A stretch of 64,000 nucleotides of DNA from the IMG/VR virus record IMGVR_UViG_3300046011_007348, positions 8,024 to 72,023 of that record; one strand, given 5' to 3'. The translations under genes and the position numbers were made by a program. The notes under the pieces were generated by a model. That model was not told the DNA's origin. It saw only the letters and a list, made by a program, of their open reading frames with translations, and did not search any database. This stretch comes from a virus (lineage: Duplodnaviria > Caudoviricetes). Below are positions 4,817 to 59,100 of the stretch, piece after piece. How positions within the stretch are numbered: position 1 is the stretch's first letter; every line of letters begins with the position of its first letter.

Positions 4817-6337
4817 GTGTCATTTAATTATATGATAAATGTCAAGTTAAATCCTAAAAATAAAACAAAAATTAAACAAAAAACTATTGATATCTTGACA
4901 CAAGATGGGAGATCTAATTCACTGGATAATTTTTACCAAGTCCCTAGGAAGTATGGAGATTTTTTAGAAGAATGTTGTCGTATACGTTCTGGTAATAAAT
5001 TTATTCCATTTATGCCATTTGATTATCAAAAAGTTGTTAGTGATTTGATTGATGACTACCGTGGGATAATGATTTTTAAGACAAGACAATTAGGATTAAC
5101 AGAATGTATTTCTGCTAAATTCTTACACAAAGCATTATTAAATCCAGCGTATGCTTCTGCTGTTTTATCGTTGGGACAAAAAGAGTCGTCTAACATTGCT
5201 GTACGTATTCAATCAATGCCTGCTAATGTAAAAGATCTTAAATTTTTAACTAAATCTAAAACTGAAATTCACTTCCAGAATGCTGGTAAAATATGGTTTC
5301 GTCCAGCTACAGATAATGCTACGCGTTCTTTGGAATCTGTTAGTGATATTTTTTATGATGAAGCTGCTTTTCCTCCAAATTTTAGTGAGATTTATGCCTC
5401 ATCAACACCATCTCAAGAAGCGGTAGGGGAGAATGCTAGAACTATAATGGCTACTACAATGTCACAACTAGGTAAGTTATCGACATTTTGGCAAATGTTC
5501 AATAGCGCTAATCCTGTGGATGCAGAATCTATAATTCAACGGATAAAGTTGGGGAAAGAAGAGCCATGTTATTGGTGGATAGATGACAATGGTTGGGCGA
5601 AAGTTATTATCCACTGGAAAGCACACCCTATATATTCTTCTGTACCTGACTTCTTAGAGAAAACTAAGAAGAAGCACAAGCTAACAGATGATGCTTTGAA
5701 CAGAGAATATAATTTAGGCATTCCTGACTCAGGTGGTGCATTATTTAGTTATGAATATGTCTCTAAATGCGCAGTCGGTAGTTGGCAATTACCAAACAAA
5801 GATAGATATTATATGGCTGCTTTAGATCCAAATTTTGGTGGTACAGACTATTGGGAATATTTGATTATTGACATTACAGAAACTCCTTATCAAGTAGTTG
5901 CAGAATATAGAGAAAACTCTAGACAATCTTTGTATTGTATAGACAAAACGCTGGAGTTATCTGATGCCTATAATCCAGTTTTAACAGTGATAGAACATAA
6001 TTCAGGTGGTGCTATTATTGCAGCTGAAATCTCCAAATTGAGGCGTAATTTATCAATTGAAACTGTAGCTACTACCAACGTATCTAAAGTGCAAAATACA
6101 GATAGATTAGCGTTAGCTTTAGAAAAACAAGAAGTTATATTCCCCTACAATTGGGATGGATTAACAGAATTTGGCGCGTTCTCTTTGCAAAGCAGAAAAG
6201 CTATGTACGGACATGACGACTGTGTTATGTGCCTTGCTATTGCTTTTGCTAAATTAGATGTTGCTTTAAGACGCAAAGGTACTGCCCTAGAAGGAGATCT
6301 AGGAACTATCGCGGGACGTAAAAGCAGATTTAGATAA
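4817..6337 (+). CDS. terL: Terminase large subunit (start may be ATG 4832)
   Basis: Q-motif PFDYQ, Walker A KTRQLGLT, Walker B IFYDEAAF, RNase H acidic motifs ALDPNFGGTD and GHDDCVM. Confidence 0.93.
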   Translation: MSFNYMINVKLNPKNKTKIKQKTIDILTQDGRSNSLDNFYQVPRKYGDFLEECCRIRSGNKFIPFMPFDYQKVVSDLIDDYRGIMIFKTRQLGLTECISAKFLHKALLNPAYASAVLSLGQKESSNIAVRIQSMPANVKDLKFLTKSKTEIHFQNAGKIWFRPATDNATRSLESVSDIFYDEAAFPPNFSEIYASSTPSQEAVGENARTIMATTMSQLGKLSTFWQMFNSANPVDAESIIQRIKLGKEEPCYWWIDDNGWAKVIIHWKAHPIYSSVPDFLEKTKKKHKLTDDALNREYNLGIPDSGGALFSYEYVSKCAVGSWQLPNKDRYYMAALDPNFGGTDYWEYLIIDITETPYQVVAEYRENSRQSLYCIDKTLELSDAYNPVLTVIEHNSGGAIIAAEISKLRRNLSIETVATTNVSKVQNTDRLALALEKQEVIFPYNWDGLTEFGAFSLQSRKAMYGHDDCVMCLAIAFAKLDVALRRKGTALEGDLGTIAGRKSRFR

Positions 6338-39875: not shown

Positions 39876-40203
39876 GAGTTATCCTATTATTCCTTTGGTT
39901 CCAAATTGGGACAGCACAAAGTCAGAGCAATCAAATATTATTGTAACTAAATACCAGCCTAACACAATTGAGGCAAGATCATCAAGAACTAAAATCAATA
40001 CCACAAATGTTACTTTCTCTGTGTCTGTTAATATAACTAATGGAACTGCTGTAGACACATTCTTGAGAGAACGTAATGGCAAAGCATTTAGAGTGGAAAA
40101 TGACACTATGCTTTACTCTTGTACAGAATGGACTATACAAGCATTGGGAGAAGGTATTGATTTATTCTCAGCTACATTTGAACAAGTTAGGAGATTTTTA
40201 TGA
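39874..40203 (+). CDS. Minor tail protein M-like, copy B
   Basis: VDTFLRERNGKAF..CTEW..SATFEQV; ATG 39874. Confidence 0.75.
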   Translation: MSYPIIPLVPNWDSTKSEQSNIIVTKYQPNTIEARSSRTKINTTNVTFSVSVNITNGTAVDTFLRERNGKAFRVENDTMLYSCTEWTIQALGEGIDLFSATFEQVRRFL

Positions 40204-40931
40204 TTCCAAATTTATTAAGTTTGAATCCAGATTCATTTATAGAATTATATGAAATATATAAATACAGAGTGGAAGATATAAATAAAGATGAAGCTGCACA
40301 AAATCCTAACGTGCCATCAACAATGATTGAAACAATTAGGATTGGTAGTATAGCTATTGATGAAAACACACCATGGGTTGTCTTTGAAGGCAAAACTTAT
40401 TATGCAGTTGGATGCCAAGGAGAAGGATTTGATTTAATCGGACGTGGTACTATTCCTACTCCAACATTAACTGTATCTAACGTTGGTGGTATTTTAACTA
40501 AATGGCTAAAAGACAGTAGAGATCCAGCATACAGACTGGAAGGCACACACGTCAAAAGGCGCGTGACTCAAAAAAGATTTTTAGATGGACAAGTAGATGC
40601 TAATGCTGGGGTAAAAGAACTGCCAATACAAATTTATGTTATTGAACAGCTAGTAGAAGAGAACTATACTAACGCAAAATTCAGACTTGGATCTGCCTTT
40701 GACGTTGAGGGAATAACATTGCCAGCTAGAGTAATGGTGCGTAGCTGCACTTGGGTATATCGTAGTCCAGAATGCAGTTACGCTAATCCTGCAAAATTTA
40801 CAATAAATAATGAGCCAACCCAAAATGCAAGTGAAGATTTCTGTGCAAAAACTATTGCAGCTTGTGAAACAAGATTTGGTGCAGGCAGTATATTACCATT
40901 TGGTGGATTCCCAGGATTAAATACTTACTAA
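40200..40931 (+). CDS. Minor tail protein L-like
   Basis: FIELYE, PTPTLTVSN, CTWVYRSPECSY, CAKTIAAC..RFG..LPFGGFPG. Confidence 0.92.
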   Translation: MIPNLLSLNPDSFIELYEIYKYRVEDINKDEAAQNPNVPSTMIETIRIGSIAIDENTPWVVFEGKTYYAVGCQGEGFDLIGRGTIPTPTLTVSNVGGILTKWLKDSRDPAYRLEGTHVKRRVTQKRFLDGQVDANAGVKELPIQIYVIEQLVEENYTNAKFRLGSAFDVEGITLPARVMVRSCTWVYRSPECSYANPAKFTINNEPTQNASEDFCAKTIAACETRFGAGSILPFGGFPGLNTY

Positions 40932-41128
40932 ACCTCGGATTCGTTGCGTTTTAATTTCATGTATATCTTTATCTTGTTCCGTAGTTCTAGCTCCTGTATT
41001 AATCCACTAACAACTAATCTATTCACAATTGAACTGATAGATTCTTCTGTTTCTTGATGGATTGATTGTAAAACAGCAAAAACATCAGTTGATACAGACA
41101 CGGAAACTTGTTTCATATTACCTCTCAT
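40928..41128 (-). CDS. Ribbon-helix-helix (CopG-like) regulator
   Basis: KQVSVSVS strand followed by two helices (SISSIVNRLV). Confidence 0.65.
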   Translation of the reverse strand: MRGNMKQVSVSVSTDVFAVLQSIHQETEESISSIVNRLVVSGLIQELELRNKIKIYMKLKRNESEV

Positions 41129-41146
41129 TGCTTACTAAATTAACTA

Positions 41147-41195
41147 TACATTATGTATAATGTACATAGCAAAAAAGTCCGACTTTTGTCGGACT
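41147..41195. promoter_or_regulatory. Two palindromes in divergent regulator gap
   Basis: TACATTAT-GT-ATAATGTA (41147-41164); AGTCCGAC-TTTT-GTCGGACT (41176-41195). Confidence 0.55.
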
Positions 41196-41196
41196 A

Positions 41197-41493
41197 ATGG
41201 AGGTAACATACATGGAAATTATAACTAAATTTAAGCCTATCCCAGACAAATATTCCTCTTTGGATAGACTCATGTGTCCACTAGAATTTAAACAAAAGTG
41301 GAAATTAACGATAGACGAGATGTCTTGGGTGCTGCAAATTAGTCCGGATACTTTTAAATCTTGGGCTGTACCTGAGACAAGTGCCAAAAGCAGAAAAACA
41401 CCTTTAATTGCTTTTGTTGCTTGCAAAGCATTAGACACTCTTTGGGAGCAGCAAGGTATGCCCAACGTTAGAGTTTTGATGAATTTACATTAA
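41197..41493 (+). CDS. HTH-like regulator (start may be 41212)
   Basis: LTIDEMSWVLQISPDTFKSW. Confidence 0.6.
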   Translation: MEVTYMEIITKFKPIPDKYSSLDRLMCPLEFKQKWKLTIDEMSWVLQISPDTFKSWAVPETSAKSRKTPLIAFVACKALDTLWEQQGMPNVRVLMNLH

Positions 41494-41592
41494 AAACTAA
41501 TTTAATTACAAAAACTGTGTACTTTGTCCACGCTATTTGTGTACAGAGTACACTTGCTTTATATATACTTTATTCTTATAGTTTAAGCATAG

Positions 41593-41638
41593 TTCCAGAA
41601 ACATTCCAGAAATAGTTCGGAAGTAAGACGGAAGTAAG
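41593..41638 (+). repeat. Four 11-bp-phased CRGAA repeats upstream of FtsK operon
   Basis: Cores at 41596, 41607, 41618, 41629. Confidence 0.75.
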
Positions 41639-41646
41639 GAGGAAAA

Positions 41647-42021
41647 ATGGATACAGACATCTTGTATCCTGTTAAACACAAAAGACAGTATAGGAGGAAA
41701 ACTCAGTCATCGGTGGTGCTATCTGATTGCACCAGAGAAGCAATTGCACTTGAGCTGGAAGTATCTACTAGAACTGTTCAAGAGTTAATCAGAATTGCAT
41801 CAACGTATATTGATTTGTTTAATGAGTATACAGATGACAATTACAGATTAAATGGTTTGCCGATAGATTCAAAACAACAAGTTGAAGTGTTAAGGCAAAT
41901 TAGACAAGTTAGACAAAAGTACAGACACGTCAAAGACAAGTCCTTTATTAAGAAGGAGTATCAAAAAATCAACCAAAGAGTTAAGGAGGAACAAAATGGC
42001 AGTCAAGAAAGCAACAGTTAA
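41647..42021 (+). CDS. HTH DNA-binding protein
   Basis: TREAIALELEVSTRTVQELI; AGGAGG RBS. Confidence 0.7.
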   Translation: MDTDILYPVKHKRQYRRKTQSSVVLSDCTREAIALELEVSTRTVQELIRIASTYIDLFNEYTDDNYRLNGLPIDSKQQVEVLRQIRQVRQKYRHVKDKSFIKKEYQKINQRVKEEQNGSQESNS

Positions 42022-42598
42022 AGATGTCGCAGCATCAATTGGCTGGACAGTCAAAGAGTTGGTAACAAGACTAAATCAAGAGCCTGGCATTAATGTCGCT
42101 CCTAGTGAAGCTTTTCCGACTTTGTCAGAGGACAGCGAGTTGTGGAAGCAAATCCAAGCTGCTGCTCAAAAAAGTCAAGTTAGTCAAGAGCCAGTTAAGG
42201 AGTCTGTCGCTATTGGAGAAGGCGAGATTAGTCCATACCAAGCGCCAATAGAAACAGTTGAGACATTAGCTGAAGCTCAGAAAGTATTAGCAGAAGAGAC
42301 AACTGGCATTCAAGTAGAACAAGCTCGTATACTTGGCTCTGTTGCTGGCATTAATGAAACCATTACATATTTTACAGCACGCCAACAAGTCACTGAAGCA
42401 TTGCTTAGACATCATATTGAGCAACAAACTAATCTCACAGATAGTTTAATCGGAAAAGCCAAAGAATCTTCATTTGAACTGCACAAGCAGACAAGGAACA
42501 GCTTGTCAGGAGCCTATGAATTAAAAAAAACTCTAGAAGAGCAAAAAGCCAGGTTGAAAAACATAGTGACGCAAATGACACAATCATTTGGGATGTAA
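41996..42598 (+). CDS. N-terminal HTH-like + coiled-coil protein
   Basis: TVKDVAASIGWTVKELV; helical E/Q/A-rich tail; A8 slippery run at 42523-42530. Confidence 0.7.
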   Translation: MAVKKATVKDVAASIGWTVKELVTRLNQEPGINVAPSEAFPTLSEDSELWKQIQAAAQKSQVSQEPVKESVAIGEGEISPYQAPIETVETLAEAQKVLAEETTGIQVEQARILGSVAGINETITYFTARQQVTEALLRHHIEQQTNLTDSLIGKAKESSFELHKQTRNSLSGAYELKKTLEEQKARLKNIVTQMTQSFGM

Positions 42599-42663
42599 TC
42601 AGACTGGTTAATGAATCGACTTTAGCGCAAATAGAGTTAGCAATATCGATTGGGCAAATTGAG

Positions 42664-42894
42664 ATGCTTCAGCAAATTCTAAAAAGAAGAAAGGAGTTAA
42701 TTAAAATCATGATTGACACATTGTTAGGAGTATCAAGTGTAGCAGGAGTAGCGACTATAGCAAGTTATTTTGCTGTTGCCACTGCTGTAGTCAATCCAGT
42801 TGTATTAACGGCATTAGGTGCAGCTGCTTTTTTAAGTGGTGTCTATATGCAATTTTCATCATCTAATTCAATTCAAATTACCCGGAGAAAATAA
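42664..42894 (+). CDS. Small 2-TM membrane protein (own RBS at ATG 42709; frame open from 42520)
   Basis: Two hydrophobic helices; AAGGAG RBS. Confidence 0.7.
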   Translation: MLQQILKRRKELIKIMIDTLLGVSSVAGVATIASYFAVATAVVNPVVLTALGAAAFLSGVYMQFSSSNSIQITRRK

Positions 42895-42895
42895 C

Positions 42896-43153
42896 ATGTT
42901 TAACGGAAAAGAACAAATCACAAGTCGTGTAGTAACTCAGATTACTAATACTAAGTTGGAAAATGGTGGTACTTTGCATGACAAAATAGAAACGCATTAT
43001 TCACCAATTAATTCACACGTTGACAACGCGCTGTCCGGTGTCCTTGTGCCTTTATCGATTGCTGCTGGCTTGTGTGCATTTGTTGCAGTATCTAACTGGA
43101 CAGCACCATCACAGTGTCAAAGTCAGGCACAAGTTCAATCTGCTCATAAGTAA
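42896..43153 (+). CDS. Small single-TM protein
   Basis: GGAG RBS; VLVPLSIAAGLCAFVAV. Confidence 0.65.
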   Translation: MFNGKEQITSRVVTQITNTKLENGGTLHDKIETHYSPINSHVDNALSGVLVPLSIAAGLCAFVAVSNWTAPSQCQSQAQVQSAHK

Positions 43154-43161
43154 GGTGACAC

Positions 43162-43572
43162 ATGCTTAGCACATTGAAAGGATTTTTCTCTAACACAGGA
43201 GACAAATTAGAAAACATTTTGTATGGAGTCAATAAGCCAATTTTCCCATACGTTTACGAAGTAAGTGAGGAGGAAGTGAAGCAAATTACTGAAGACGCAA
43301 CTGCGACAGAACAAATGGCTGCAAGAGTAAAAACATATCTAAAAGCAGTGGAAAGAAAAACCAAAAGTGTTGAAGAAATGTTTAATGCAAACAATGCTTT
43401 TGAAAAGTCAATGATGGCAACTGCTGAAAGATTAAATGACAAGAACAAGATGATGTATGCCGCTCGAAAGGAATACAAAAAACAATTGCCTTTTAGCGTC
43501 AAAAGGTACTTGCACCCAGCAAGGATTGTAGGCGATTCTACAGCAAACATTATCAAAGGAATTTGTCAATGA
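43162..43572 (+). CDS. Coiled-coil hypothetical protein
   Basis: AAGG RBS; helical heptads. Confidence 0.65.
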   Translation: MLSTLKGFFSNTGDKLENILYGVNKPIFPYVYEVSEEEVKQITEDATATEQMAARVKTYLKAVERKTKSVEEMFNANNAFEKSMMATAERLNDKNKMMYAARKEYKKQLPFSVKRYLHPARIVGDSTANIIKGICQ

Positions 43573-43826
43573 TGGAAGACGAAAGAATGACAGATATTCA
43601 GAATTCAGCAAGGTGGATGTTAGGAGCCAATCAAATACTAATCGTCATAGCTTTTGGTGCTTTTACTGGCTATTTATCCCGCTATTATCCACCTTCTAGT
43701 TCTGTCACGATAACAGTAATTACGTTTGCATGTATTTGTGGATTTCTGTTTCCAGCTACAAGAAAAATACTACTTTTAGTTGGAATATTTTATGGACTAG
43801 GACTTGTCCTTAGTCATTTGAATTAA
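43563..43826 (+). CDS. Small 3-TM membrane protein
   Basis: Three hydrophobic segments. Confidence 0.7.
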   Translation: MSMMEDERMTDIQNSARWMLGANQILIVIAFGAFTGYLSRYYPPSSSVTITVITFACICGFLFPATRKILLLVGIFYGLGLVLSHLN

Positions 43827-43890
43827 TTGTTTGGGAGGTGCCAAGTGGATACCATTACTTGCCTCCTTATTCATTTTAAAGGGAGGTATT

Positions 43891-45723
43891 ATGTTCTTTT
43901 TTAAATCAAAAGCAAAGCCTAAAGTTGTACACAAGAAATTTGAATTAAGTCCAGTTGTGTTGTACAACTTAATTGGAGTAACAATTTTAGTTTTTACACC
44001 TGCAATGATTAGCTGGAAAAATGCTAAAGAGTTGCGAGTAGCAAGTAGTGCCGTAGCAGTAATGTACTCTATGGTATTGTTAAAATATGCCCAAAACAAT
44101 ATTGATGAAGCTGATAGACTTGCCATAGAAAAAGAGCATTACTTTACGGCTTATGCTAATGCTTCTGGGGATGTTTATTTAAATTCAGAACAACAAATCA
44201 AAAATGCTTTGCTGCCTCCTGCTTCTAGTCCAGAAGTAGACTTAGAAGTTCTGCATCCATTAGAAGATACACTCTTAAAATTAGGCATCAAAGCAACAAT
44301 AGATGGAGAGCCAATAGATTCTCCTACGTTTACTAGATTCAAGATAGTGCCTGACAAAGGAGTGCATTATCAAAAATTTAATAATTTGTCAGATACTCTA
44401 AAAGTTCATATGGGGTATGATACACCTCCACTGATTTCATGTCAAAGCAAGTATGTCTCGATTGATGTAGCAAAGACAGACTCAGAAAGACGTTTTTGTG
44501 AATATCAAGAATACTCAAACAATTTGAATTATTCTCTTGAGAAGTTCACTGTTCCTATTGGAGTTGACATCAACAACAATCTTGTTGAAGTGTCGTTATC
44601 AGATGCTAACTCCCCTCATTTATTGATTGCTGGAACTACTGGTAGTGGCAAGAGTGGTTGGTTAGTAGCTTGCATAACTAGTTTGCTGGATAGATTTCCT
44701 GCTGATAAATGCAGACTATTTTTGATTGATCCAAAGCTAGTTGAGTTTGATATTTTTGAAAAATACAAACAAGTTGAGTTGGTAACAAAACAAGAAGACG
44801 CTCTTACTTTGTTGCACAATTTACTTAACACAATGGAAAGTAGATATGAGCTATTCAAAAAACATAAAGCACGGGATTTATCTCAATACAATAGAGAAAA
44901 TCCTAAGAATATTATGCCACGAGTTGTGGTGTGTTTTGATGAATACGCAACATTCATGGTAGGAGACAGTAAAGATGATTTTAACGATTGTTTATCTCAA
45001 CTAGCACAGAGAGCGAGAAGTGCTGGAATACACCTTGTATTAGCTACTCAGCGTCCTGATGCGACAATTGTCACGCCTAGGATACGCTCTAACATACCTG
45101 CTCGCATTGCATTAAAGACTATCCAACACCAGGATAGTGCTATAATTTTAGGAGTAGAAGATGGCACTTTAAACTCCAAGAATTTGTGTGGTAAAGGTGA
45201 CTTAATTGCTAATTACAATGGCAAGCTAGAAAGACTGCAAGGATTGTATGTCAAAGATGTAGATTACACGTTATCAAATACTGAAATCAAGGAGTTAACA
45301 AATGTAGATTCACCTTACCAAAATGACGAAATTGCCTATAGCTATAGTGAAGCACAAGATAGCGAGAAAGGTGAAGTGTATACTCACTTCTCCAAAACAG
45401 CTCAAAAGGATAGTGTACAAGCATTTGAGTCTAAAAACAAATTTGTAACTAGCTTAGTGAAGCTAAAAATCGCTGCCTTAATGTCTGGGGATATAGACGA
45501 AACTGAGCCGTTATTTGATGATAGTTATGGGCTGTCATCAGAGCAGCAGCTTTTAGTGTTGAAGTTTTTTCTAGACAAAAACATAGGCAAAGAACGCACA
45601 ATTAAAGCTCTATGGGGAACAAGTTCTGGTGGTAAAAATCATCATAAATATCAAAAATCAAGTGCTATTTATGATGACATGATATCTAAAATAAAAGAAC
45701 TTGAATACTTAACACAAGTGTAA
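43891..45723 (+). CDS. FtsK/SpoIIIE-family DNA translocase with 2 N-terminal TM helices
   Basis: GGAGG RBS; FtsK-alpha-like region; PHLLIAGTTGSGKS, LIDPKLVE, MESRY, VVVCFDEYA, AQRARSAGIHLVLATQRP, GKGDL. Confidence 0.93.
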   Translation: MFFFKSKAKPKVVHKKFELSPVVLYNLIGVTILVFTPAMISWKNAKELRVASSAVAVMYSMVLLKYAQNNIDEADRLAIEKEHYFTAYANASGDVYLNSEQQIKNALLPPASSPEVDLEVLHPLEDTLLKLGIKATIDGEPIDSPTFTRFKIVPDKGVHYQKFNNLSDTLKVHMGYDTPPLISCQSKYVSIDVAKTDSERRFCEYQEYSNNLNYSLEKFTVPIGVDINNNLVEVSLSDANSPHLLIAGTTGSGKSGWLVACITSLLDRFPADKCRLFLIDPKLVEFDIFEKYKQVELVTKQEDALTLLHNLLNTMESRYELFKKHKARDLSQYNRENPKNIMPRVVVCFDEYATFMVGDSKDDFNDCLSQLAQRARSAGIHLVLATQRPDATIVTPRIRSNIPARIALKTIQHQDSAIILGVEDGTLNSKNLCGKGDLIANYNGKLERLQGLYVKDVDYTLSNTEIKELTNVDSPYQNDEIAYSYSEAQDSEKGEVYTHFSKTAQKDSVQAFESKNKFVTSLVKLKIAALMSGDIDETEPLFDDSYGLSSEQQLLVLKFFLDKNIGKERTIKALWGTSSGGKNHHKYQKSSAIYDDMISKIKELEYLTQV

Positions 45724-47165: not shown

Positions 47166-50100
47166 CTATCTTTTAAGTATTCCACCCTGTCTTTGTTGAC
47201 GTTGTATTTCTACTATTACTGCTGTTTTAATAGCACTCTGCATCGCATTTGGATCTATGGACGGTGATTTGTCACCATCTTGACTTTCAATCGTTATAGG
47301 CACATTTACAGTTGTATTTGTTGTTGGTTGATTAATATTTCCTAGTCCAGGAGATGGGGGAATAACTCCACCACTTGCAAAGTTCATTATGTTTCTTACT
47401 TTTAATTCGCTATTGCTTACGTTGCCTCCCATGGCATAGTTCATTACGGATTCAATATTGTTGTTTTTAATTGCTTTATCTAATCCCATCGACTGGAACT
47501 TAGCATTGTCAGCAACACTCAACACTCTTTCTCCTGGCGTTAATACTGCTACTACTGGTGTTATTCCTCCATTTGCAGCTTTCTCTCTGACAATTGCTTC
47601 ATTTAATGATTGAATTATGCCTCCACCAGCATAGTTCTTGATTACTCCTCCTTTGTATTGGCTGGATACTTCGCCTCCATCGTTGGCACTTGGGACTTCG
47701 CCGCCGCTATTTCCTCCAAATATTCCTCCAATTGATTTGAATAATGAATCAAGAATCCCTCCTGCTCCTACTAATGATTGCATTAATGATTTGATAGCTA
47801 TGTTGATAAGTCCGTTTAGCATGTTTTTAGCTAGGTTGTTTAAGACATCGTCTAGTTTTTGGACACCCATTATTACGTCTGTAAGCCCAGCTGATAAATC
47901 ATTGATCAAAGAATCTCTAACCATTTGACGGATTGTCGAAACTACATCCTTAGCTGCGTTTTTAGACTCTTCTAGTTTTGCTTTGTATTTTTCTTCAATC
48001 TCCTTAGTTCTTTCTTCATATTCCTTGTCATCTATATCCCCCCCCTCTTTTTCTTTCTTTGCTTTATCTAGTTCGTCTTGTTTCTCTTTTTTTAAACGCT
48101 CTTCATCCATCCTCCGTTGTTCTGCATTTATTTGAAACTGATTGCCACCTTTGTCTCTATATATATTTAATCTTGTTTGAGCCGTTTCTTGTTTCATGGC
48201 AATGACAGTTTGCTTAATATCTTTTGTTAAATCTGTCATTAACTTGGTTTGCATTTCTTGGTTTTTCCGTACAAGATCTGTTCTTTGTTCCTCATTCAAC
48301 AAAACGCTTGCATTAATTTGAGCCTCACGCAAAGCAGTTGCTTTCTCGATTTCATACCGTCTTGATGCAAATTCACTTTTAGAAAAATTATAGTCAACAG
48401 AGTTCATTAAATCTCTTCTTTCAAACCTCCTGTCTACTTCTGTTTTAGTTTCGTTAGCTTTATCAATTTCAAGCTGAGATTGGTTTTGTATTCTTTTTAT
48501 TCTAGTAATTTCTCTATATTTTTCTATTCTTGCCTCTGCGTCTACTGAGGTTAATAGTCCTTTTGCTACTAACTCCTTTGTGTTTAATTCATATTGTGAT
48601 AAAGCATCTTCAATTTGAAGTTTTCTCTCTTCAAATTGCAACTCTGGCACTGAACGGATATTTAATAACTGCATTTGGTTAAATGGCATAAGTCCTTCAG
48701 CGAAAGAATTTTGTATTTGCGAATCTTGTGTTACAGGGAAATAAGTATTGCCTTCCAATTTGTATTCATCCATACCACCAAATCCAAATTTGCTTCTAGG
48801 CTTCATTAGTTCCGTTAAATTATTAAATCTTGGTTCATTGGGGTTTGCTGTTGGCTTTTTCAGCTCTTCAATTAACCGTAAACCCTTCAATTCATCTACT
48901 AATTTAGCATTCTCCTTAATACTTTGATTAAACTTTGGTATATCTGAATGCAATTTATCAACATCTATGTTATATTGCTTAATGTCTGAGTCAGTCATCT
49001 GGATTGCTTTAGGATATATTTCCTGTAGCCTTAAGACTTCTTTGTCCAATCTTTGTCCTTCCGTCTTTTGCTTTTGAAAGATTTCTTCTAGGTATCCCTT
49101 TTGTTGTTCTGGTGTCGTAAAATCAATTGTCCCTACTCGTTTGATACTAAACTTTGGATCTACTTGTTCTTGGAATTTTATTTTCCCCCCAGAATACTCT
49201 CCTATCTCTCTACCCTTTTGACTTATATCTAATTCAGCTTGTCTTAAAACATTATCCGAATCTCTTATTTTAGATCTATTCTCATACTCTCTTCTAAGCC
49301 TAGACATTGCTTTAGTTAATTTAATCCTTTCTTCAATTTCTTTCTTTTGAACGTCTATCGACTTCAAGGTAGTATCTAAAGTTGCTATATCCACTTTGAA
49401 TCGAGAGGCTAATCGTTGTTCGTCTTTGTTAAGGCGATCTAGATATTTCTCTCTTTGTTTTACATCTGTGATTTGCTCAAGCCCTTTCCTGAGTGGGTTA
49501 AACAAAGCTAACGTATCAGTTAGTTTACCATCGGTTCCTTTTACAAAGGATTGTCTAAGAGAATTTAATCTCTCTTGGATATCTTGTCTTGTATCATTTA
49601 ACTTATTAAGAGTGTCGGTTAACTTTATGCTTTCGGGTGTTAGTGGATCGGGTAATTTATCAGGAGAATATTCGTTAAGTATGTCAGAAAACGATCTTAC
49701 TAAACTATTAGTGGAATCCCTAGACTCTCTGATTGTTTTTTTAGTATTTTTAAAGAAATTATCAAGATTACGAATAACTGATGCTTCGTTTTGTTTTCTT
49801 AAAGCTTCAGCACGCTTTTTGTTTGCTTCATCTTGTTGTTTAAGAATCTCTTCCCTTTGTTTTTGAGAATCTGCGATAGCACCAGTGTTTACGCCAGCAG
49901 ATGGAGAAGTAGAGCCAGTATTAGCAGCGCCAGTATTGGCAGTCTCAGGATTATAGCTTCTAGCTCTCTGGAAAGTTTTCATGCTATCGCTATCTCCTAC
50001 AAATCGCCAGTGCCATGGTTCATAATCTATACCTTGACGATTATTCTGAGGAAAAGATAATTCAAAGCCAAAACGAGCAGCGTTAGATTGTAACCATGAA

Positions 50101-53100
50101 AATGCTTTTGTTTTTTCAAATGTGGAATTGAGATTAGTTCCTGGTGCTGCTTTATCACCAATATCGACAGCATATCCTGTATGATGCTCACTATAACCCG
50201 GAGGAGCGCTAACTTTTGCTCTTTGTTCTGGAGTTTGATTGCGTTGGGCAGCTACTCCAAAAAACAATTGTCGTTGCTGTTGAATGGAACGAAAACCAGA
50301 AATAGGAACTAGAACTACACCTTCCTCTTTAGCTCTTCGTGCCATGTATTCAAATTTTTCAGCAGCAATTTGCCGTAGTTTAATTTTCCCGTCAGTTGTG
50401 ATAGGACTTAGCTCTTTCAGAGGTGCTTCGTTATAAGCTAAATGCCCATACTTGCTTTCATTGTTACTTGATGTGGTGTTTGACGCACTCCCTGCTCTAG
50501 CAGAAGCTGATGGCACAACAGCAGATATTGGCGTTTGCCCAGTTATAAAAGGTGTAGGATCTATTGCCCGTCCATTAACCCTTATCTCAAAATGCAAATG
50601 AGGGCCGGTGCCTACTCCTGTATTGCCTAATTTTCCTATTTGTTGTCCAGCTTGAACAACGTCCCCAACCCGAACCAACATTTCAGATAAGTGTGCATAT
50701 CGCGTTTCAAGTTTTTTATTGTCTGGTGTTGTATGTTCTATGTAAATTACCTTTCCATAGGCACCCTGAGTTTTAGCAATTTTTACTATGCCAGGTAAGC
50801 TAGAAACAATAGGTTCCCCAATTTGTCCAGCAAAATCCCTTCCTGCATGCCTTCTACCAGGACGAGGATCTCCAAAGTGCCCCCCGGGTACAGTCCTTCC
50901 TCTGTTTGGGTGCGGATGCACAAAACTACTAACGCTAGATGGTGGGTTTTGTGATGCACCGAAAAAACTAAATAAAGAAGAAAACACGCCTTGAACACCG
51001 TTAGAGTTAGATGAATTACTAGATGTCGAAGAGTTGTTAGTAGGAGTTGATGGAGCCGGTGTTGCATTAGAATAAGGATCTATTTTTATGCCCGCAGATC
51101 TCTCTAATAAATCAACAGTTTGTTGCAAGCTAACATTCATATTAGAAACAGATTCATTAGCTTTTACCATATTTTCATTTAATTTTTCGGTGTTTTTATT
51201 AGCCTCCCCCGACTCTTTAACAGTTTGTTGAGTCTGTTGAGTTACTTTTGCCGCTGATGCTCTAACTGCATTTATTAAAGCCTCTAGTTCTTTGCTTGAT
51301 TGTGTAAAAGCTTGTTTCATATCAGACTCAATATCTTCTGTGACTCCAATAATGTCTTTACCAGAAGGCAATGTCCTTATAAGTTCTCTTGCTTCTATTT
51401 GGCTATCTTTAATTCTATTTTTAAAATCTAAGCTAGTTCTTTCAGTATCTATTTGACTTAAAGCGGTTTGGTTTAATTGTTCTATGATAGATACCAACCC
51501 ATCTATATATCTAGTAAATTCAGTGTCTCCTAATCCGGTTAACGCTTCATTAATTTTGGTTTTAAAGTTAGCGTTTTGTATTTCTTGGTTAGCTTTTTTA
51601 ATCTCTAATCGCCCTTGATCTATCTCTTTAGTAACAGAACGAACGTAATCATCTACCTGTTTTTGTTGTTGTCTTAAAGACTCTTTTAAATCATATCTGC
51701 TTTTAGCTAATGAACTGCGAGCGGTAGCAAGGCTCGTGGCATCATCTTGAGTTTGTTTTCTTAATTCAGTTATTTTATCTTTAGCTTCAGTATTAAGATT
51801 GCTATCAGGTATTGTACTGAGTAAATCCAAAGCTGCCTTTCTCATTGTGAATAAACGAGACAACCCAGACACTCTTTGTTCTTGTGATATTATCCCAGAT
51901 CTCCGTGTTGCATAATCAACATCCCCAGGATTAGCACCGGAGCTATATATCCTTTCCTCTCTAAGTGCAGTAGATCTATCAATGTTTGCAGAAAACCTGT
52001 CGTAAGCAGCTTGAAATCTATTTAATGCAGATAAAGTATCTTTGTAAACTTGTTCTAAAGGATTAACAGGGACACTTTTTTCAATGATTTGCTTTGCTTC
52101 CTGTGCAAAATCTTTCATCTCTTTAGCTATTTGCAGATAAGCACCTCTCACGGGTGCTGGAACAGTTTTTGCCGCATCCTCTAGTTTTTTCGCTTCTTCC
52201 AGTAAAACATTAGCCGAATTAGCGTTGGCTTCTACATCCTTAGCCAACTCTTTTCTTAATGCAAGTCTCTGAACTATTTGTTTAGATAAATCCGCAGCCC
52301 TCTTTTTTGACTCTGGGGTATTTTGTTGAGTTGCTTTTGATTTTTCAACAGATAAACCTAATACTTCTATGTCAATTTGTTTTAATCTATCAGCAACGTC
52401 TTTTACCCTAGCTTTATATTTGTTTTGAGTTTCCTTGGTTAACCCTAAGTTACCAAATTCTTTTTTGCTACTTTGTAAAACAGAATCAAAGTAATCTAAA
52501 TTATCAATTACCTGTTTAACTCCAAGTGTAATATCGTAATCAGTATCAGATACAAGTCCTTTTATATCATATTTTTTAAGAATTGCTTTTTGTTTAGGAG
52601 AGATTTTATCAGTTGCATATTCTCCCCCGAATCCAGTATTAATATTTTTATCAAGGCCACGCCTCCTGTTTTCCCCTTCTCTCTGCGCTACAATCTCTTC
52701 GTATTTGTTGTACTCCATTAACCCCAAACTGTTTTTATCTATTTCACCTCTTAATGCTTTATTTACATTTTTGACAAAATCGTCTGTAGTATATCCTTCT
52801 TCTTTCATCCCAAAAACATAAAAAATATCAAGCTGAAGCCCTTTTGAGGGAATAGAATCAGCAACGTTTTTATATCCTTTAGCCAACTCCTTGCTGCTTT
52901 TTTGGTTAACTTTAGAAGCTTCATCAACTTTTGCTAATGAATTACTAATACTTCCCAAAGCTCCATTAACAGATCTAGCCATTTCGCTAATGCTTTTCTG
53001 CATGGGGTTAGAAAAATCACTTCTAGCTAAAAACATAAAGGCTAGTGCTATACCAGCTTCTATCCCAATTTTTGCTAAGCTTTTTAATGATTTCATTAAA

Positions 53101-56100
53101 CCTGCAAGCATTTGAGACAAAGCTTGTCCCCATGCTGCTCTAGCGCTACTTGCAAGCATTCCATCGGAGCTAAATAAAAGAGTAAATGCTTTTATAATTC
53201 CAACAGATGTAATTGTTTTCCCCAGTGAAGTAAGTGATGCTCCAATTGCGTTTAAGCCTCCAACAACACCTTGAGTCCATGCAAAATTTAGAGCAGCTTT
53301 TAGCCCTTTAAAACCATTTCCTACAAGTTGGAATAATCCAACAAAAGAAGCCCCAATTCCTTGCCAAAATCCAGCCTTAAAGCCAGCTGTTATATTTGCC
53401 ATAAAACCTGCAAACGCTGCTTTTGTTGCGCTAATTCCATCTATAAAACCACCAAATATTGCAGATGCCCCGATTGTGGCTGGAAGCTGCTTAAAAAATC
53501 CAGTAAAAGAAGCCCATAGCCCTTTCATCTGAGTAGCTATTGTTGTTTTGGCAGAATAAAAAGCATATGCTATTTCATCTTGTAATCTAGTTCCTATGGG
53601 TGAACGTTGTTTAGACTCGACTTGAGCAGATAAGTCAAAAGTGTTTGTGAATAAAGACTGTATTCCTTTTGGAGAAATTGCTTCATTTTTCATCCCTACT
53701 AAAGACACTCTTATCCCATTAAGTCCCTGTAATAACCCCTTAAACATTGGCATCCCAAAATGTTTTGTAAGGGTAATTAATTGCTCAAACATTAAAACTA
53801 AAGCAAGCAGTTCAATTACACCAGAAGGAATAACTTTAGTTATATTGCCGATTCCATCAATAAAAGACTTAAAGGGGTTTTCACTTGGCTTTCCTACAAT
53901 AGTATCAAACAACCCTTTCCCAGTAATTTTTCGTTTTACACTATCCAAACTACTTAAAAACCATAGAATTCCATTACTTACGCCTTCATACATGTTTTGC
54001 ATTAATGTCTTCTGAGCGCCTAAAAAATCATCTAAAACATCAGCTAAAATGCCTAAGAAAAATGGCCCTAACGCACCCATAAGCGCGGCAATACCCGCCG
54101 TTAACAAACCAGATATATTCATTAAAAAAGTTTTTACTGGGTTCATTTTTAATAAGAAAACTAACCCAACTCCAAGAGTGGCAGTTACACCAATAACAAA
54201 GGAGCTAAAAATTTTGATTATATCGTCTAGGATTGCATTTATTGCGGACGCTATGTTTGAAAAGATATCAACTACAAACGAAAATAATCCACCAAAAGCA
54301 TTGACTAATTTAATAGACATTTCCATCCCAATGTTTTGCAATCTAGTTAGTGAGATAGAAAACCCTTCAGCTCCTTTTGCCGCCCCGCTATAGTCTATTT
54401 TTAATTGTTTTGCAACTTTGGGTAATACTTCTTCTGCTAGCAAACTACCTGCTGAGGACATTTCTATTAATTGGGGTATAGAAATGTCTAGTGCCTTTGC
54501 AAATATACCCATAGCGGGAGGGAATCTTTCACCCAGCTGCTGTCTTAATTCTTCCATGGAAATTTTGCCCTTGGACAGCATTTGAGTATAAGCCATAAAT
54601 ACTAACTCAGCGTCTTGCCCAGATATTCCTAGCGCGCCTAGTGATGCACTAATACCTTCAAATAAATCCCTAGCGCCTTCACCTTCTAATTTTGTTCCTC
54701 TAGCTGCAATAGCAATTTGGCTGTAAGCCTGAGTAGCTGCTTTAGCTGGAACGTTTAAGGCTTTGGCTGTGTTCATTGCATAATTAAGCTCTGCTTTCCC
54801 GCCTTCTTTTGAGCCACCCAAAAAGTTTAATCGCCTTTGTAATGGCTCTAACTCCAGCATGGCCTTAACAAGAGACTGTATTTGATTTCTAACCATAAAT
54901 ACAGCCCCACCAATAGCTCCAAATAACGGAAGCAAAGGTGTTACCAATGGTAATAAAGTTGTGGCAAAAGTTGTGATAGGAGCAAATACACTAGCGGCAG
55001 AAACAATAAATGAAAGCATATTCTTTTGAATATCCTCCCTTTCGTCTGGCGCAAAGTTTTTCATTTTATCTCGCTTGAATTGAGCGCCAATTGCATTCCA
55101 GAAATCTTTAAAAACGTTTTTAGGTACGACTATACCTCTTTTCCATTGAGTAACTATCTGATCCCAAATTTCTTTTGGGTTTTCAGCTCCTAATGCTTTT
55201 CTAACTTCTCTTTTAACGTCAGAACCAACATTTTTCCAGTTGGCAACAGCTTCATTAAACCCTTTAATTATGGCTTTACCAATATTTAACCCTTCCTGAG
55301 TAAATGCTTTGTGAAAAGCAGATATACCCAAAAGCAGAGCTGTTATTGCCATTTTTACCTGAGCTGTGTCTATTTTTATCCCCATAGTTGCGGCAACGTT
55401 TTGAAGCCCACTCGTCTTAAATAACTGTTGGGCTGTACGTGCTGTCATATTAACAGCGCCTTCAACATTCCCAGACGCATAAGCATTGGCTATCCTAACA
55501 GCTCTACCACCCAATCCATTGGTAGCAGAAAGCATTCCAGAATCAACAATTTTATTTATTAAAAAGTCTCTAATACTGTTAACAATCTTGCTATTTTTTT
55601 CTAAAATCCCTCTCAATAAATTACTATTCCCAGGGTTTTTAATAGTAAAACTATCAAACAGTGTTCTTAAAACTTGTCTAGCTAAGTCTTTAGCACCTGT
55701 TCCTTCTATACCAATAGAACTTATGTTTGTTTTAATTTGATTTTGAAGAGTTTGGGTTAAATTTTCCCTAGGGACATTTTCCCCAAGTGCTGGTAATTTA
55801 TCGCCATACACAGAACTAGCAAAACCAGCTACTTTTCGTCCAGCTTGCGCTAAAAAGGGTATGCTAGACAACGTTTTAAAAAATGGGTTTTCGCTACCTA
55901 TAAACAATCTAAATAGCTTGCTTATTCCAAAAGCTTGTCCCCCTTTATCTCCCATTTTATCTTCCCTGCCTAAATCAATTCCTGTAACAGACTTGATGAC
56001 AGAAGGCAACAACCCTCCTGGCTGGAAGATGTTGTTATTTTTTAAAAGATTAGAAGCAAACTGCCCTATCTTTCCTGCTTTATCACCTATCAGCCCTGGC

Positions 56101-59100
56101 AATAATGGCGCTAGAAGCGGCAGTAAATTAGTAAGATTAGCGCTACCACCAGTTACCATTTCAAACAGTTTAGGAGCCATTTTGAACAAACCCAGGCTAG
56201 AAAGTGCATTCATACGCCCTGTGTCCATAAAGTTTTTCTCAATCATGTTTTGGAGGCTCTTCCCAACAGCTTTACGAAGATAGCCTCCTAGAGAAAAAAT
56301 GCCCACTCCTTGTCCAGACGTGCTTGAAAACCCGTCTACAATACTGTCAAATAGTTGCTTAAATACAGATTGCTTGCTAGTTGCAACAGCACTTCCAGAT
56401 TCTTTGACTATAGAGCTTACAGTCCCAAACCCAACGTTAACACTTTGGGCTTTTTTCCGAGAAAATTTATACGCATTTAAAATACTTTGTTGTATTTCTT
56501 TATCAGTCATTCTACCGGACGATACATCAGCAACAAATTTTTGTAATTTTTTGTCTATAAGATTTTTCTGTGCAGCATAAAGACTCTTTTGGGATTGAGA
56601 TATCCCAGGAGTATTCATTAACTCATCTATCCGTTTTTTATATTCTTCTGATATTTTATGGCTTGCTAATAATAGAGTAGAAACCTTCTTAGATGAGTTT
56701 CTTATAAGAGGTAAAATATTCTGGTATCTTAATTCAGGAGCATTTTTATCGTAATTCATTAAAACATCAAAATCTGACTTCGCTGCCTTTGCTATTTGAT
56801 TTTGTTGTTTTTTACTAAATCCTAAATAGTGCATTGTATCTTTATTAGGCTTCATAACTTTGGATCTTAAATAATCCATTGCTTCTGCCTCGCTACCAAA
56901 ATTTCCCTGCTTATAAGACTTAGCAAAGTCTTTCAAGTCTGCATCTATTTTCTTTTTAGATCTTGCAAGCATGCCCTTTGAATATTTAGTAAGAGCTGGA
57001 TTATTCATTTCTTTATCAACAAACTTTTTATATTCTTGAGATATTCTATGAAATGAATAAACTAATGATGCTGTAGCTCCATCCTCAAAACCTTTTCCAA
57101 AGTCAAGCCCCACCCCTTTCATTATCAAGGAGGGTGATGATATGCGCAAAACTTTTTTGACACTTTTAACTAACGAAAAGAATGACTCTGAGATAACTTT
57201 GCTTTTAGAACCAAAATTACTAAACCCATTCAAAAATCCTTCTACTAAATTAAAGCCTATTTTCAAGAAAGTTTTTGGTAGTCCTTGAGGGATAATGCCT
57301 GATATTCCTTTTAATAAATTTCCTCCTAATTTACTAAAAATACCTTGAGGCATTATAGACAATATTCCTTTAGGTATAACTTGCCCTATTTTAGAAAAAA
57401 TATTTTTAAATCCAGTAGGTAAAACCGCTAAAAACTGGTTAGAAATCATTGACAATAAAACATTCCCAACTCCTTTCAAGTCAAAGTTTTTTAACATTGA
57501 AAACATGTCATTGTCTAATTGTTCTTCAACACCATTATTTAGTCGCTCCTCATCTTGTAGTGGCTTACTTCTGCTTTTTTGCCTAAACCTACTTTTAGAC
57601 TTTTGTTTGGCTTTATCGCCATACATATAATTAAGAAAGTCTGGATGTGTAAAAACAGTTTCTTCATTTATTGGCTTGTTTTCTTTTTCTAACTGCTTAT
57701 AAATTTTGGAGTAAAGCCTTTTCAACTCTCTTTCTTTTTTAAGCGGTACTTGTCTTTGCTGTACATAGCTTTGCCCTCCAATTATGTCGTGTAAGCTATC
57801 ACTTACTTTTATTCCACCACTAGGATTAATGCTTATCAAGCCAGACGTTCTTCTTTTAAATTCTTTGTCAGACATTGCACTAAGATTAGACTTCGTGACA
57901 TTAACGTGCCTGCCATCGCTTTCCAATAATACCTCTTTCCTGGCAATAGCTTCTGTCTCTATTTGTTTTCTGGTTTTACCTAGATTTGTATGCCTTGTGT
58001 ACCCGCCCAAGTCATCTTTTTGGAGATTTAATGATTTTGCAATAGCAGGGAATTTATCTAATAAAGAGATTAATTTAGAATTTATACTAGCAGGCAATGG
58101 AATGGTAACACCTTCCGGAAAGCTCCTTTTTTGTTTTGACTTTGCACCTGCCCAATCATAAACATCTACTGCATTTATCCCAGTTTTTGTTTTAACTACA
58201 CCAAAACCCCCAAGAGTTAGTTGCAGCGATCTAAGATCTTTCAAAAGTAAATCAAACTCAAGTTTTTTACTTGAATTAGCAAATTTAGATTCACTGTCAA
58301 ACGCGCCTAAGTAACCATAGCCAGACTGTTGCTTACCTTTATCAGCTAGAAAAACACTAACAGCATCTATTATAGGGGATAAAGAGTTTTTATCATTAAA
58401 CTTAATTACATCTGTATTTCCCCTATAAAATTTACCAAGATGAGACATTGGGATATTCTGCTCTACAGAAGTAGGTTTCCTGCCTAAAGCCGGCAATACC
58501 GTTGACAATATTTTGCTGTTTGCAATTAGAAAACTACCTATATCTTGAGATAATTCATTAGAACCTTTTGAGCCTTTTCTTGAGTTTTTAAAAACTTGTT
58601 TTACCTTGGTTGCATAGGCTTTATTCTTGTCATCAACAGCATTCTCTATTAAGCTGTCCAAAGACTCCGCGCCTTGCTCTGTTGTGTCTTTAACGGTAGA
58701 GATTACTTCGTCAGCAGCTTTTTTTACATTAATTTTATTTGTAACTAAACCAATAGCCAAACCCGCAGCTATTGCAGCACCAATACTAATAAAAACTTTA
58801 GAAGGTGAAGATATGCCTAATATTTTTTTGAATGCAACTATATATTTTTTAGCTTCTTCTTCCCCAAGTGTTTTAAATGCAGATGAGTTTGTCTGAATTC
58901 CTTCCTGATTTGCTTTAGCTATCAAATCAGCTTCTTTTTTTACTTTTAAATATGATTTACTAACTTCTTGTTTAACACTTTTTTCGCCTGCGCTAATCGG
59001 TGATTTAGCTTGCGCTATTTCATTTATTTGTTGTGGAGTTGCATTTAAGCTTTTAGCTTCCGCCATTAGCTTTTCTACTGCTTTTCTACTGTCACTACTT

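Follow-up and report, generated by a model that had tools for sequence, protein, structure and literature searches.

In the DNA of a tailed phage from lake water (36% GC; IMG/VR record IMGVR_UViG_3300046011_007348, positions 8,024 to 72,023, a stretch of 64,000 nucleotides (nt) called the window in the following), two neighboring genes of an operon behind the tail genes, here named gene A and gene B, seem to be linked by recoding. A programmed −1 ribosomal frameshift on an A_AAA_AAR heptamer close to the 3′ end of gene A probably gives rise to an A-B fusion of 299 amino acids (aa) in the window and its close relatives, the window clade. The recoding signals, the open −1 frame, a coding extension of B that has no ordinary start, and the conservation of this arrangement in a second deep clade of phages are directly visible in the sequences described below. 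From them we infer the slippage itself and the role of the fusion.

According to the mechanism that we favor, some of the ribosomes translating gene A would slip back by one base at positions 42523-42529, where both lysine tRNAs could re-pair perfectly, and pairing of the 16S rRNA tail with an AGGAG sequence 10 nt upstream would aid the slip. Slipped ribosomes would read the −1 frame to position 42894 and produce the 299-aa protein, comprising residues 1-178 of A and the whole long form of B, and those that do not slip would finish the 200-aa protein A, taken to be soluble. A short form of B (61 aa) would probably be made as well, from an internal AAGGAG-ATG arrangement with its ATG at 42709.

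A Slippery Heptamer and an Open −1 Frame in Gene A

Gene A (41996-42598, + strand) has a GGAGG sequence 6 nt 5′ of its ATG and encodes a zero-frame product of 200 aa. The slippery heptamer A_AAA_AAA (42523-42529, + strand) lies in frame at codons K177 and K178, the zero frame reading GAA TTA AAA AAA ACT at this site and the complete A8 run spanning 42523-42530. A Shine-Dalgarno (SD)-like AGGAG (42508-42512, + strand), kept in all six window-clade sequences, is separated by 10 nt from the heptamer, by 11 nt from the P-site codon, and by 7 nt from an ATT codon, all of which follow it. The −1 frame is closed by TGA at 42517-42519 and is then open for 124 codons (42520-42891) up to a stop codon at 42892-42894. 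This TGA is polymorphic; four of the five close relatives have CGA instead, and in these the −1 frame is closed by TAG at 42499-42501. The open −1 frame of the window begins with the ATT at 42520-42522 (+ strand), which represents a candidate AUU start of the kind known from the insertion sequence (IS) IS911 and from infC.

A shift on the heptamer would join residues 1-178 of A to a trans-frame part encoded at 42529-42894 (+ strand; 121 codons plus stop), which by coordinates amounts to 299 aa. The peptide HSDANDTIIWDVIR is present in the −1 translation. The first canonical start codon of the −1 frame is ATG 42664 and not ATG 42709, the latter being linked to a ribosome-binding site (RBS), AAGGAG 10 nt upstream, and opening the 61-aa short form of B (42709-42894, + strand). 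ATG 42709 is preceded by 63 open codons. An initial annotation, made from the letters of the DNA, had proposed an SD-stimulated −1 frameshift here, and its coordinates for the heptamer, the AGGAG, the TGA, the open −1 frame, and ATG 42709 were all confirmed on the sequence. The lengths that it had given for the two products, 200 aa and about 299 aa, are likewise right when derived from the coordinates.

Among the 63 open reading frames (ORFs) of the window, with 20,492 codons, there are 16 in-frame A_AAA_AAR heptamers. At the site at 42523 the −1 frame continues for 121 codons, compared with 1-17 codons at the other 15, and this is the sole site of the 16 with an SD-like 5-mer upstream. Across the genes of the window the density of −1-frame stops is 0.11 per codon, i.e., about one per 9 codons. 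The list of 16 sites is exact, whereas a broader null of 375 heptamers required only two of the three Y positions.

Conservation in Cylindrospermopsis Phages

A tblastn search of phage records with the FtsK/SpoIIIE-like protein encoded at the end of the operon gave matches of 41% identity in two phages that have been cultured, Cylindrospermopsis phage Cr-LKS4 (OQ625504.1) and C. raciborskii virus CrV-01T (MH636380.1), which come from different countries and possess a syntenic operon after tail gene L. Their genes g50 and gp048 encode full-length homologues of A (22% identical, E 2e-6), and the −1 ORF holding g51 or gp049 matches the −1 ORF of the window from residue 10 of the latter (36% identical, E 6e-16). 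Together with seven loci from IMG/VR these two phages make up the Cr clade, which consists of nine loci with four sequence types and identities of A down to 75%.

At the site homologous to the heptamer of the window, to within one codon (YAKQKKL in place of YELKKTL), g50 reads CAA AAA AAG and contains an in-frame A_AAA_AAG, and this heptamer is kept in all nine loci of the clade. It is invariant there while neighboring synonymous sites vary (GTG/GTC, GCT/GCA, AAG/AAA, GAA/GAG, and ACT/TCA). Opening 1-6 codons upstream of the heptamer, the −1 frame extends over 144-146 codons to the end of B. In Cr-LKS4, a −1 stop is situated one codon before the heptamer and the −1 frame is then open for 145 codons to the end of g51, so that the predicted fusion would have a length of 196+142 = 338 aa by coordinate arithmetic.

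The TTG annotated as the start of g51 is TTA in one locus of the clade (L037), in which codon 67 is the first canonical start. In both cultured phages (g51, L033 3102-3416, OQ625504.1; gp049, L034 3102-3416, MH636380.1), the annotated TTG abuts AGGAG with no spacer. For the linker of 42 codons between the stop of A and the Met at codon 67, the ratio of nonsynonymous to synonymous substitution rates (dN/dS) is 0.16-0.30 in five diverged pairs, a sign of purifying selection, and for the core of B it is 0.10-0.19. The lengths of this linker (128, 128, 125, and 119 nt) differ by multiples of three, and it contains no stop in the B frame as opposed to 0-7 stops in the other frames. On these grounds, the GenBank models of g51 and gp049 probably miss an N-terminal part of the protein.

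A Coding Extension of B Without a Canonical Start

In the window, the N-terminal extension of B (42520-42708, + strand) comprises 63 codons and contains no ATG, GTG, or TTG before position 42664. It was compared with the loci L011 and L015, which belong to another clade and initiate their long B at an ATG of its own. The comparison was anchored on the conserved internal ATG, and 14 codons of the extension (42622-42663) lie 5′ of the first canonical start of the window. In the B frame, these 14 codons reach BLOSUM scores of +38 and +36 against L011 and L015, compared with −14/−19 and −2/−5 in the other frames, and their identity to both loci is 0.86/0.79 at codon position 2 but only 0.29/0.50 at position 3. 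Among 12,263 background 14-mers of the window proteome, the maximum score is 19-24 and none reaches the observed 36-41; shuffles give p <= 5e-5. A hidden Markov model of the homologues' N-termini, run unanchored against the six-frame translation of the window, gave only a weak match for the extension (6.8 bits, E 0.37), and the anchored tests, which carry no multiple-testing cost, were used in its place.

In the overlap of 26 codons between the two genes (42520-42597), codon usage scores +4.39 for the B frame and −4.39 for the A frame. The former value is reached by 0.14% of 17,495 −1-frame windows and by 2.6% of the 660 stop-free ones, and the latter falls into the lowest 0.27% of in-frame windows. 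The cluster of B has 16 members, 15 of which are listed, and among those listed the gene calls are 61, 76, or 90 aa, so that no canonical start exists further 5′ in any of them; at the position where the 90-aa form starts, the window reads TTA. There is, therefore, a signature of coding upstream of every canonical start, which indicates that a translated N-terminal part of B lacks an ordinary start. Judged from this signature, the extension is a genuine coding sequence without a canonical start. The 63 codons before ATG 42709, which had seemed otherwise unexplained to the initial annotation, are thus real coding sequence.

Further downstream in gene B, an internal AAGGAG (42693-42698, + strand) is formed by the codons AGA AAG GAG. 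All three lineages, the window, L011, and L015, share these codons exactly, even though AAG and GAG account for only 25% of Lys and 27% of Glu codons, respectively. The AAGGAG with an ATG 10 nt downstream is kept in the window (42693-42711), in L011 (about 5713-5731), and in L015 (about 3072-3090), and the Cr clade possesses AAAAAGG-N5-ATG at the corresponding position. Because the three codons are identical across lineages despite being minority codons, a separately initiated, membrane-only short form of B of 61 aa is suggested. Neither the internal Met at 42664 nor the Met in the 'QIEM' sequence of the Cr clade is conserved between clades; only the RBS-linked Met is.

Complementary Distribution of Heptamer and Start Codon

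Sequence searches yielded few relatives. Those of A are its own 90% cluster, one relative of 91%, and P0005 (33%), the homologues P0002 and P0003 being 91-92% identical to it, and those of B fall into three clusters of 110-115 aa (P0007, P0008, and P0009). L011 and L015 carry a syntenic operon in which B has 110-112 aa and starts at its own ATG, 31-34 nt inside the 3′ end of A and in the −1 frame. In L015, GAGGAG is located 11 nt before this ATG. The N-terminal part of long B from both loci aligns with the −1 extension of the window. Both are without the heptamer, and P0009, which also has its own ATG for long B, is grouped with the same clade. In L015, the −1 frame even contains a stop between the homologous site and the ATG of long B. 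Identities of the FtsK-like proteins are 50% for window-L011, 41% for window-Cr, 45% for L011-Cr, and 79% for L011-L015 (N-terminal 168 aa).

On the basis of these sequences, three deep clades exist. The window and Cr clades possess the heptamer and the open frame and have no start for long B, whereas the clade of L011, L015, and P0009 is devoid of the heptamer and has its own ATG. Such a complementary distribution is what is expected if the heptamer gives access to the long form of B. Conservation in homologs had been named as a check by the initial annotation; the heptamer and the open −1 frame are found in six of six window-clade and nine of nine Cr-clade loci, but the heptamer is missing from L011 and L015, and the −1 stop of L015 is of the kind that the annotation had named as refuting its proposal. 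As the Cr clade is the most remote one by pairwise distance, the frameshift state would seem to be ancestral, a polarity that derives from pairwise distances and not from a rooted tree. No clade beyond these three emerged when IMG/VR was scanned with alignments of B or with the FtsK-like protein, singly or in aligned form.

P0033 (179 aa), considered because of its length as a variant of A with a run of seven A residues, was rejected as an N-terminally cut fragment. In L015, gene A is found in two frames (2371-2968). Its N-terminal 60 aa end at TGA 2551-2553, and the remainder lies in the +1 frame, which is open from 2543, beside a run of five A residues (TTA AAA AGC). Seen in one contig only, the arrangement may reflect a mistake of assembly, a gene that is truly split, or a further recoding site.

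Possible Initiation at AUU as an Additional or Alternative Route

Since L011, L015, and P0009 make a free long B that is started inside the 3′ end of A, the question arises whether the window clade makes long B in the same way, as a free protein of 124 aa initiated at ATT 42520. The A run would then just encode two lysines and the fusion would be negligible. ATT 42520 is the first codon of the open frame, no ATG, GTG, or TTG precedes 42664 in the window clade, and SD cores in the window sit 4-10 nt before starts. The distance of 7 nt from AGGAG to ATT also falls within the 4-9 nt reported as optimal spacing for initiation (bioRxiv 10.1101/2020.04.16.045807). Low-level initiation has been described at an AUA 7 nt after an SD-like sequence (PMC4066793), and the printed IS911 cassette has ATT directly before its A6G run (PMC8136817, Table 1). 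However, heptamer and open frame are kept in the Cr clade together with a selected linker that has no start, and GCA stands there in place of ATT, so that AUU initiation cannot be the conserved mechanism, and no SD is present in three of the four Cr sequence types. In addition, starts other than AUG, GUG, and UUG are weak and rare. AUU initiation as the sole route to long B is therefore unlikely.

AUU initiation may also occur beside the frameshift, because the elements of the signal in the window clade are laid out as in the IS911 cassette. That the start at 42520 is used in this way, yielding a free 124-aa long B in addition to the fusion, is conceivable but rather doubtful. It is, on the other hand, very likely that at least one of the two, the slippage fusion or the AUU start, operates in the window clade. 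The proposal of an SD-stimulated frameshift made by the initial annotation is substantially strengthened by the heptamer, the SD spacing, the open frame, the coding extension, and the conservation in the Cr clade; it is qualified by the absence of a convincing downstream structure, by the clade that does without the heptamer, and by entry at AUU, which had not been considered in it.

Candidate Stimulators of the Proposed Frameshift

Both SD elements and slippery A runs have precedents. For −1 programmed ribosomal frameshifting in dnaX, a spacing of 10-14 nt between the SD and the P site is reported to be optimal (bioRxiv 10.1101/2020.04.16.045807), and the 11 nt between the AGGAG of the window and the P-site codon fall inside this range. 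An SD stimulator features prominently in dnaX and, by estimate, in 56% of IS elements (PMC5009743), and A_AAA_AAG or A_AAA_AAA accounts for 72% of the heptamers in IS1/IS3 elements (PMC4066793). A_AAA_AAA shifts at more than 0.1% even without stimulators (PMC4066793).

A downstream structure would be expected 5-9 nt after the site. The predicted irregular stem-loop at 42547-42609 (+ strand) starts 17 nt after the heptamer and is a weak, poorly placed candidate for a stimulator. A possible hairpin between the AGGAG region and a CUCU downstream of the run was discarded, being no better than shuffles (z −0.69, 45/200), and Rfam gave nothing above threshold and only two chance-level matches (E about 6). 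Since the stimulators are the weak point, the efficiency of the frameshift is expected to be low to moderate.

Points Against the Frameshift and Further Alternatives

Several observations weigh against the proposed frameshift. Some concern the signal itself. AAAAAA encodes 45 of the 84 Lys-Lys pairs in the genes of the window and an A run is thus a cheap outcome, and the motif GGAG-N5-ATTAAAAAA is found again at 15776-15793 (− strand), where no −1 ORF exists; motif frequencies predict 0.19 such motifs per window. In E. coli, A_AAA_AAA is reported to shift less efficiently than A_AAA_AAG (PMC4066793). The stem-loop of the window has a dG of −20.2 kcal/mol with z −2.2, and 8 of 200 shuffles are as good; the consensus hairpin of the Cr clade overlaps the heptamer and has no compensatory pair among 21. 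The Cr clade is also without an upstream SD, except for a GAGG 12 nt upstream in L038-L041, one of the four sequence types.

Other points concern the proteins and their evolution. The L011/L015 clade makes long B separately, and hence the fusion is not required for the function of B. No homologue with A and B fused in a single ORF was detected; among 1.84 billion representatives, only relatives of 200 aa and 197 aa and one spurious 1242-aa repeat protein appeared, and a word search over proteins of 110-350 aa gave only matches of 200/201 aa. The distal 34 residues of the extension are not significantly similar to the N-termini of L011, L015, and P0009 (p 0.02, 0.84, and 0.28), and the 13-16 codons of the Cr linker 5′ of the TTG are only mildly constrained, with a ratio of nonsynonymous to synonymous polymorphism (pN/pS) of about 0.3-0.7 from small counts. 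The window-clade sequences, being 96-98% identical, are too alike for a test of selection within the clade. A stretch of reduced variability at 42518-42662 (no variable site in six sequences) permits no inference, because the bin 42300-42399 is likewise invariant.

The second copy of the cassette motif (GGAG-N5-ATT-A7, 15776-15793) is located inside a virion structural gene (13526-16057) and has ATT AAA AAA in the zero frame. Its −1 frame closes after 9 codons, and it serves as a negative control for the motif alone.

One might go further and suppose that no recoding takes place, that B is made from ATG 42709 (or 42664) only, and that the upstream frame is the relic of a recently lost start, with the A run and the AGGAG being coincidental. 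Gene callers indeed give proteins of 61 or 76 aa, and the AAGGAG-ATG found at 42709 is shared by the window, L011, and L015. In the window A-rich Lys-Lys codons are common and a look-alike motif exists, and the finding was picked after the fact out of a large scan. Against such a coincidence stand the coding signature upstream of every canonical start and the B-frame codon usage from 42520 onward. A start-less arrangement, a conserved heptamer, and a dN/dS well below 1 are found again in a clade that is only 22-36% identical, and neither of the internal Met residues (42664 or that of the Cr 'QIEM' sequence) is conserved between clades. We consider the absence of recoding quite improbable.

The fusion could also be made by a different kind of slippage, as the initial annotation had pointed out. 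If RNA polymerase added one A within the A8 run, the resulting mRNA with nine A residues would encode the same 299-aa protein. Homopolymeric A/T runs are prone to slip, which is possibly why AAAAAAA is under-represented in E. coli genes (PMC4066793), and transcriptional slippage is documented on runs of nine A or T (PMC5009743). The runs in question are short, however, with eight A residues in the window and seven in the Cr clade, while typical runs have nine or more A/T, and bacterial RNA polymerase is reported to need at least seven T and even more A (PMC6260861). Moreover, both clades keep the run in X_XXY_YYZ phase with the A frame, and only ribosomal slippage needs such phasing. Contigs from three RNA libraries show A8 and no indel at the site, although contigs hide rare variants. 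The transcriptional route would yield the same protein but is the weaker of the two, and we regard it as very improbable.

Finally, homopolymers are error-prone in sequencing, and the initial annotation had noted that reads might reveal such an error. A and B could then really be a single ORF or be mis-assembled; gene A of one close relative, L005, indeed shows an N and an unrelated 1-nt gap at other places. However, AGGAG, ATT, and A8 are present in six of six independent assemblies (the window and L001-L005, 96-98% identical over 41600-43900), and Logan contigs from four more runs, one DNA run and three RNA-library runs, cross the A run without a gap. The RNA-library contigs, from two studies, span 42310-42821 with interruptions; rare variants are lost in contigs, and carry-over of DNA is possible. 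The zero-frame tail of A is also kept in P0002, P0003, P0005, and the two cultured phage genomes, and every full-length homologue of A ends at the same place. An assembly or homopolymer error is hardly credible as an explanation.

Comparison With Known Recoding Systems

A −1 frameshift on an A run is a known type of recoding. The closest resemblance is to the orfA/orfB cassette of IS911, a member of the IS3 family, which is printed as GGAG, 8 nt, ATT, and A_AAA_AAG, with TTA AAA AAG in the zero frame (PMC8136817, Table 1). The window has AGGAG, 7 nt, ATT, and A_AAA_AAA, and in both cases the −1 frame carries the downstream gene. For IS911, a frameshift efficiency of about 12-13% is given (PMC8136817). 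Unlike IS911, the gene pair of the window is not part of a transposable element, and A and B are not parts of a transposase; the last base of the heptamer is A instead of G, and the three-way-junction stem-loop of IS911 is lacking after the site. The Cr clade shares the A6G heptamer with IS911 but has neither the ATT nor the SD. An AUU start is named in titles of work on IS911, where ATT directly before the A6G run reportedly serves as an SD-dependent start of OrfB.

The system also resembles dnaX of E. coli, with its tau and gamma products, in the A_AAA_AAR heptamer, the SD-like stimulator about 10 nt upstream, and the formation of two products from one mRNA. In dnaX, however, the shifted frame stops after one codon, giving the shorter product, and a strong stem-loop follows the site. 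In the window, the shift would carry translation 121 residues further, into the following gene, and a good stem-loop is lacking.

In long-tailed phages, a −1 frameshift is conserved in the tail assembly chaperone genes G/GT, where it takes place close to the 3′ end of a gene and produces a C-terminally extended minor product, and it is the arrangement and not the sequence that is conserved. G/GT sits directly upstream of the tape measure gene. In contrast, the tape measure gene of the window is encoded at 47166-60527 on the other strand, A and B belong to a regulatory/FtsK-like operon behind tail gene L, and a predicted membrane protein forms the extension. The overlapping, separately initiated pairs of L011 and L015 encode the same two proteins with the same −1 overlap, and an ATG of that kind is missing in the window and Cr clades.

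Considering the three clades together, the junction of A and B might be an evolutionary toggle, with a trans-frame fusion in two deep cyanophage clades and two separate polypeptides in the third, and with an IS911-like cassette of triple use (SD, AUU, and A run) in the window clade that would generate four products, A, the fusion, free long B, and short B. We offer this comprehensive reading tentatively and think that it is rather unlikely to hold. If it were true, the ratio of the products would set the share of A that is anchored in the membrane next to the FtsK-like DNA translocase, and the cassette would be the first IS911-type dual signal for initiation and frameshifting outside insertion sequences.

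Predicted Functions of A and B

The initial annotation had described A as a DNA-binding protein. This is not supported, because the only matches obtained for A, to IF2_N at the N-terminus in three of the four homologues scanned (E 0.017, 0.0016, and 0.0073), remain below threshold, with 15.3-18.6 bits compared with the Pfam cut-off of 25.3. The rest of A is predicted to be helical or coiled in our reading. Sequence searches of PHROGs, PADLOC, and the PDB with A and B retrieved nothing.

In B, a hydrophobic stretch covers about residues 60-112 of the −1 ORF (Kyte-Doolittle windows above 1.6), is split by Asn-Pro, and is flanked by basic residues, from which the C-terminal half of B would appear to form a two-helix membrane hairpin. 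Long B is accordingly predicted to be a small membrane protein of two helices with an N-terminal extension of roughly 60 aa in the cytoplasm. As a guess, the fusion might anchor part of A at the membrane beside the FtsK-like translocase and other small membrane proteins.

The Operon and Its Genomic Context

Besides A and B, the window encodes, among others, a terminase, a DnaB-like helicase, lambda-like J and L tail proteins, and a tape measure protein. The + strand operon starts after tail gene L (40200-40931) with two small helix-turn-helix (HTH)-like genes, continues with gene A (41996-42598), gene B (ending at 42894), and three small genes, two of them hydrophobic, and ends with the FtsK/SpoIIIE-like gene (43831-45723). 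It is kept in all three clades directly after tail gene L (window, 40928-45723; L011, 3274-8592; L033, 456-6476). In detail, it consists of a small divergent ORF, ribbon-helix-helix-like in our reading, an Xre/Cro-like gene, an HTH-like gene overlapping the start of A, A, B, a gene of 80 aa with a hydrophobic C-terminus, a helical gene of 135 aa, a two-helix gene of 85 aa, and the FtsK/SpoIIIE-like gene with its N-terminal hydrophobic segments. Among relatives 96-98% identical to the window, positions 43000-43199 are hypervariable, with 26 and 25 variable sites per 100 nt as opposed to 0-9 elsewhere in 41600-43900. This stretch corresponds to the C-terminal hydrophobic half of an 85-aa gene at 42896-43153 and the start of the next gene.

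The tape measure gene (47166-60527, − strand) is a single ORF of 4453 aa, an exceptional length, with the tape measure domain PF20155 (TMP_3) at residues 1885-2065. It also holds two cell-wall hydrolase domains, an M23 peptidase (3226-3324) and a VanY D-Ala-D-Ala carboxypeptidase (3382-3512).

With regard to the host, the nearest cultured relatives by operon infect the bloom-forming cyanobacterium Cylindrospermopsis raciborskii, and the ESM Atlas gave clusters of cyanobacterial hypothetical proteins at 0.90, which are taken as a host lead only. No tRNA was detected in a scan of the window, two scans of genome contigs turned up no prophage or host, and neither a nucleotide search with 41600-43900 nor a tblastn search with A gave a match among phage records.

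Significance

In the GenBank records, g50/g51 and gp048/gp049 are listed as separate hypothetical proteins, and the frameshift is not annotated. A literature search and searches of passages in PMC9303873, PMC12481020, and bioRxiv 10.1101/2024.12.13.628456 brought up no mention of a frameshift in these phages, a negative that extends to these searches only. If the frameshift occurs, a protein is missing from the GenBank annotations of both cultured Cylindrospermopsis (Raphidiopsis) phages, and a well-conserved non-structural case, outside IS elements and the tail chaperone, would be added to the short list of bacterial and phage frameshifts. The contrast with sister clades that replaced the frameshift by a start codon would be unusually clean, and the cultured phage-host pairs make the prediction directly testable. 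The frameshift would also offer an initial clue to an operon that freshwater cyanophages conserve beside their tail genes, with a soluble component that would be partly tethered to the membrane.

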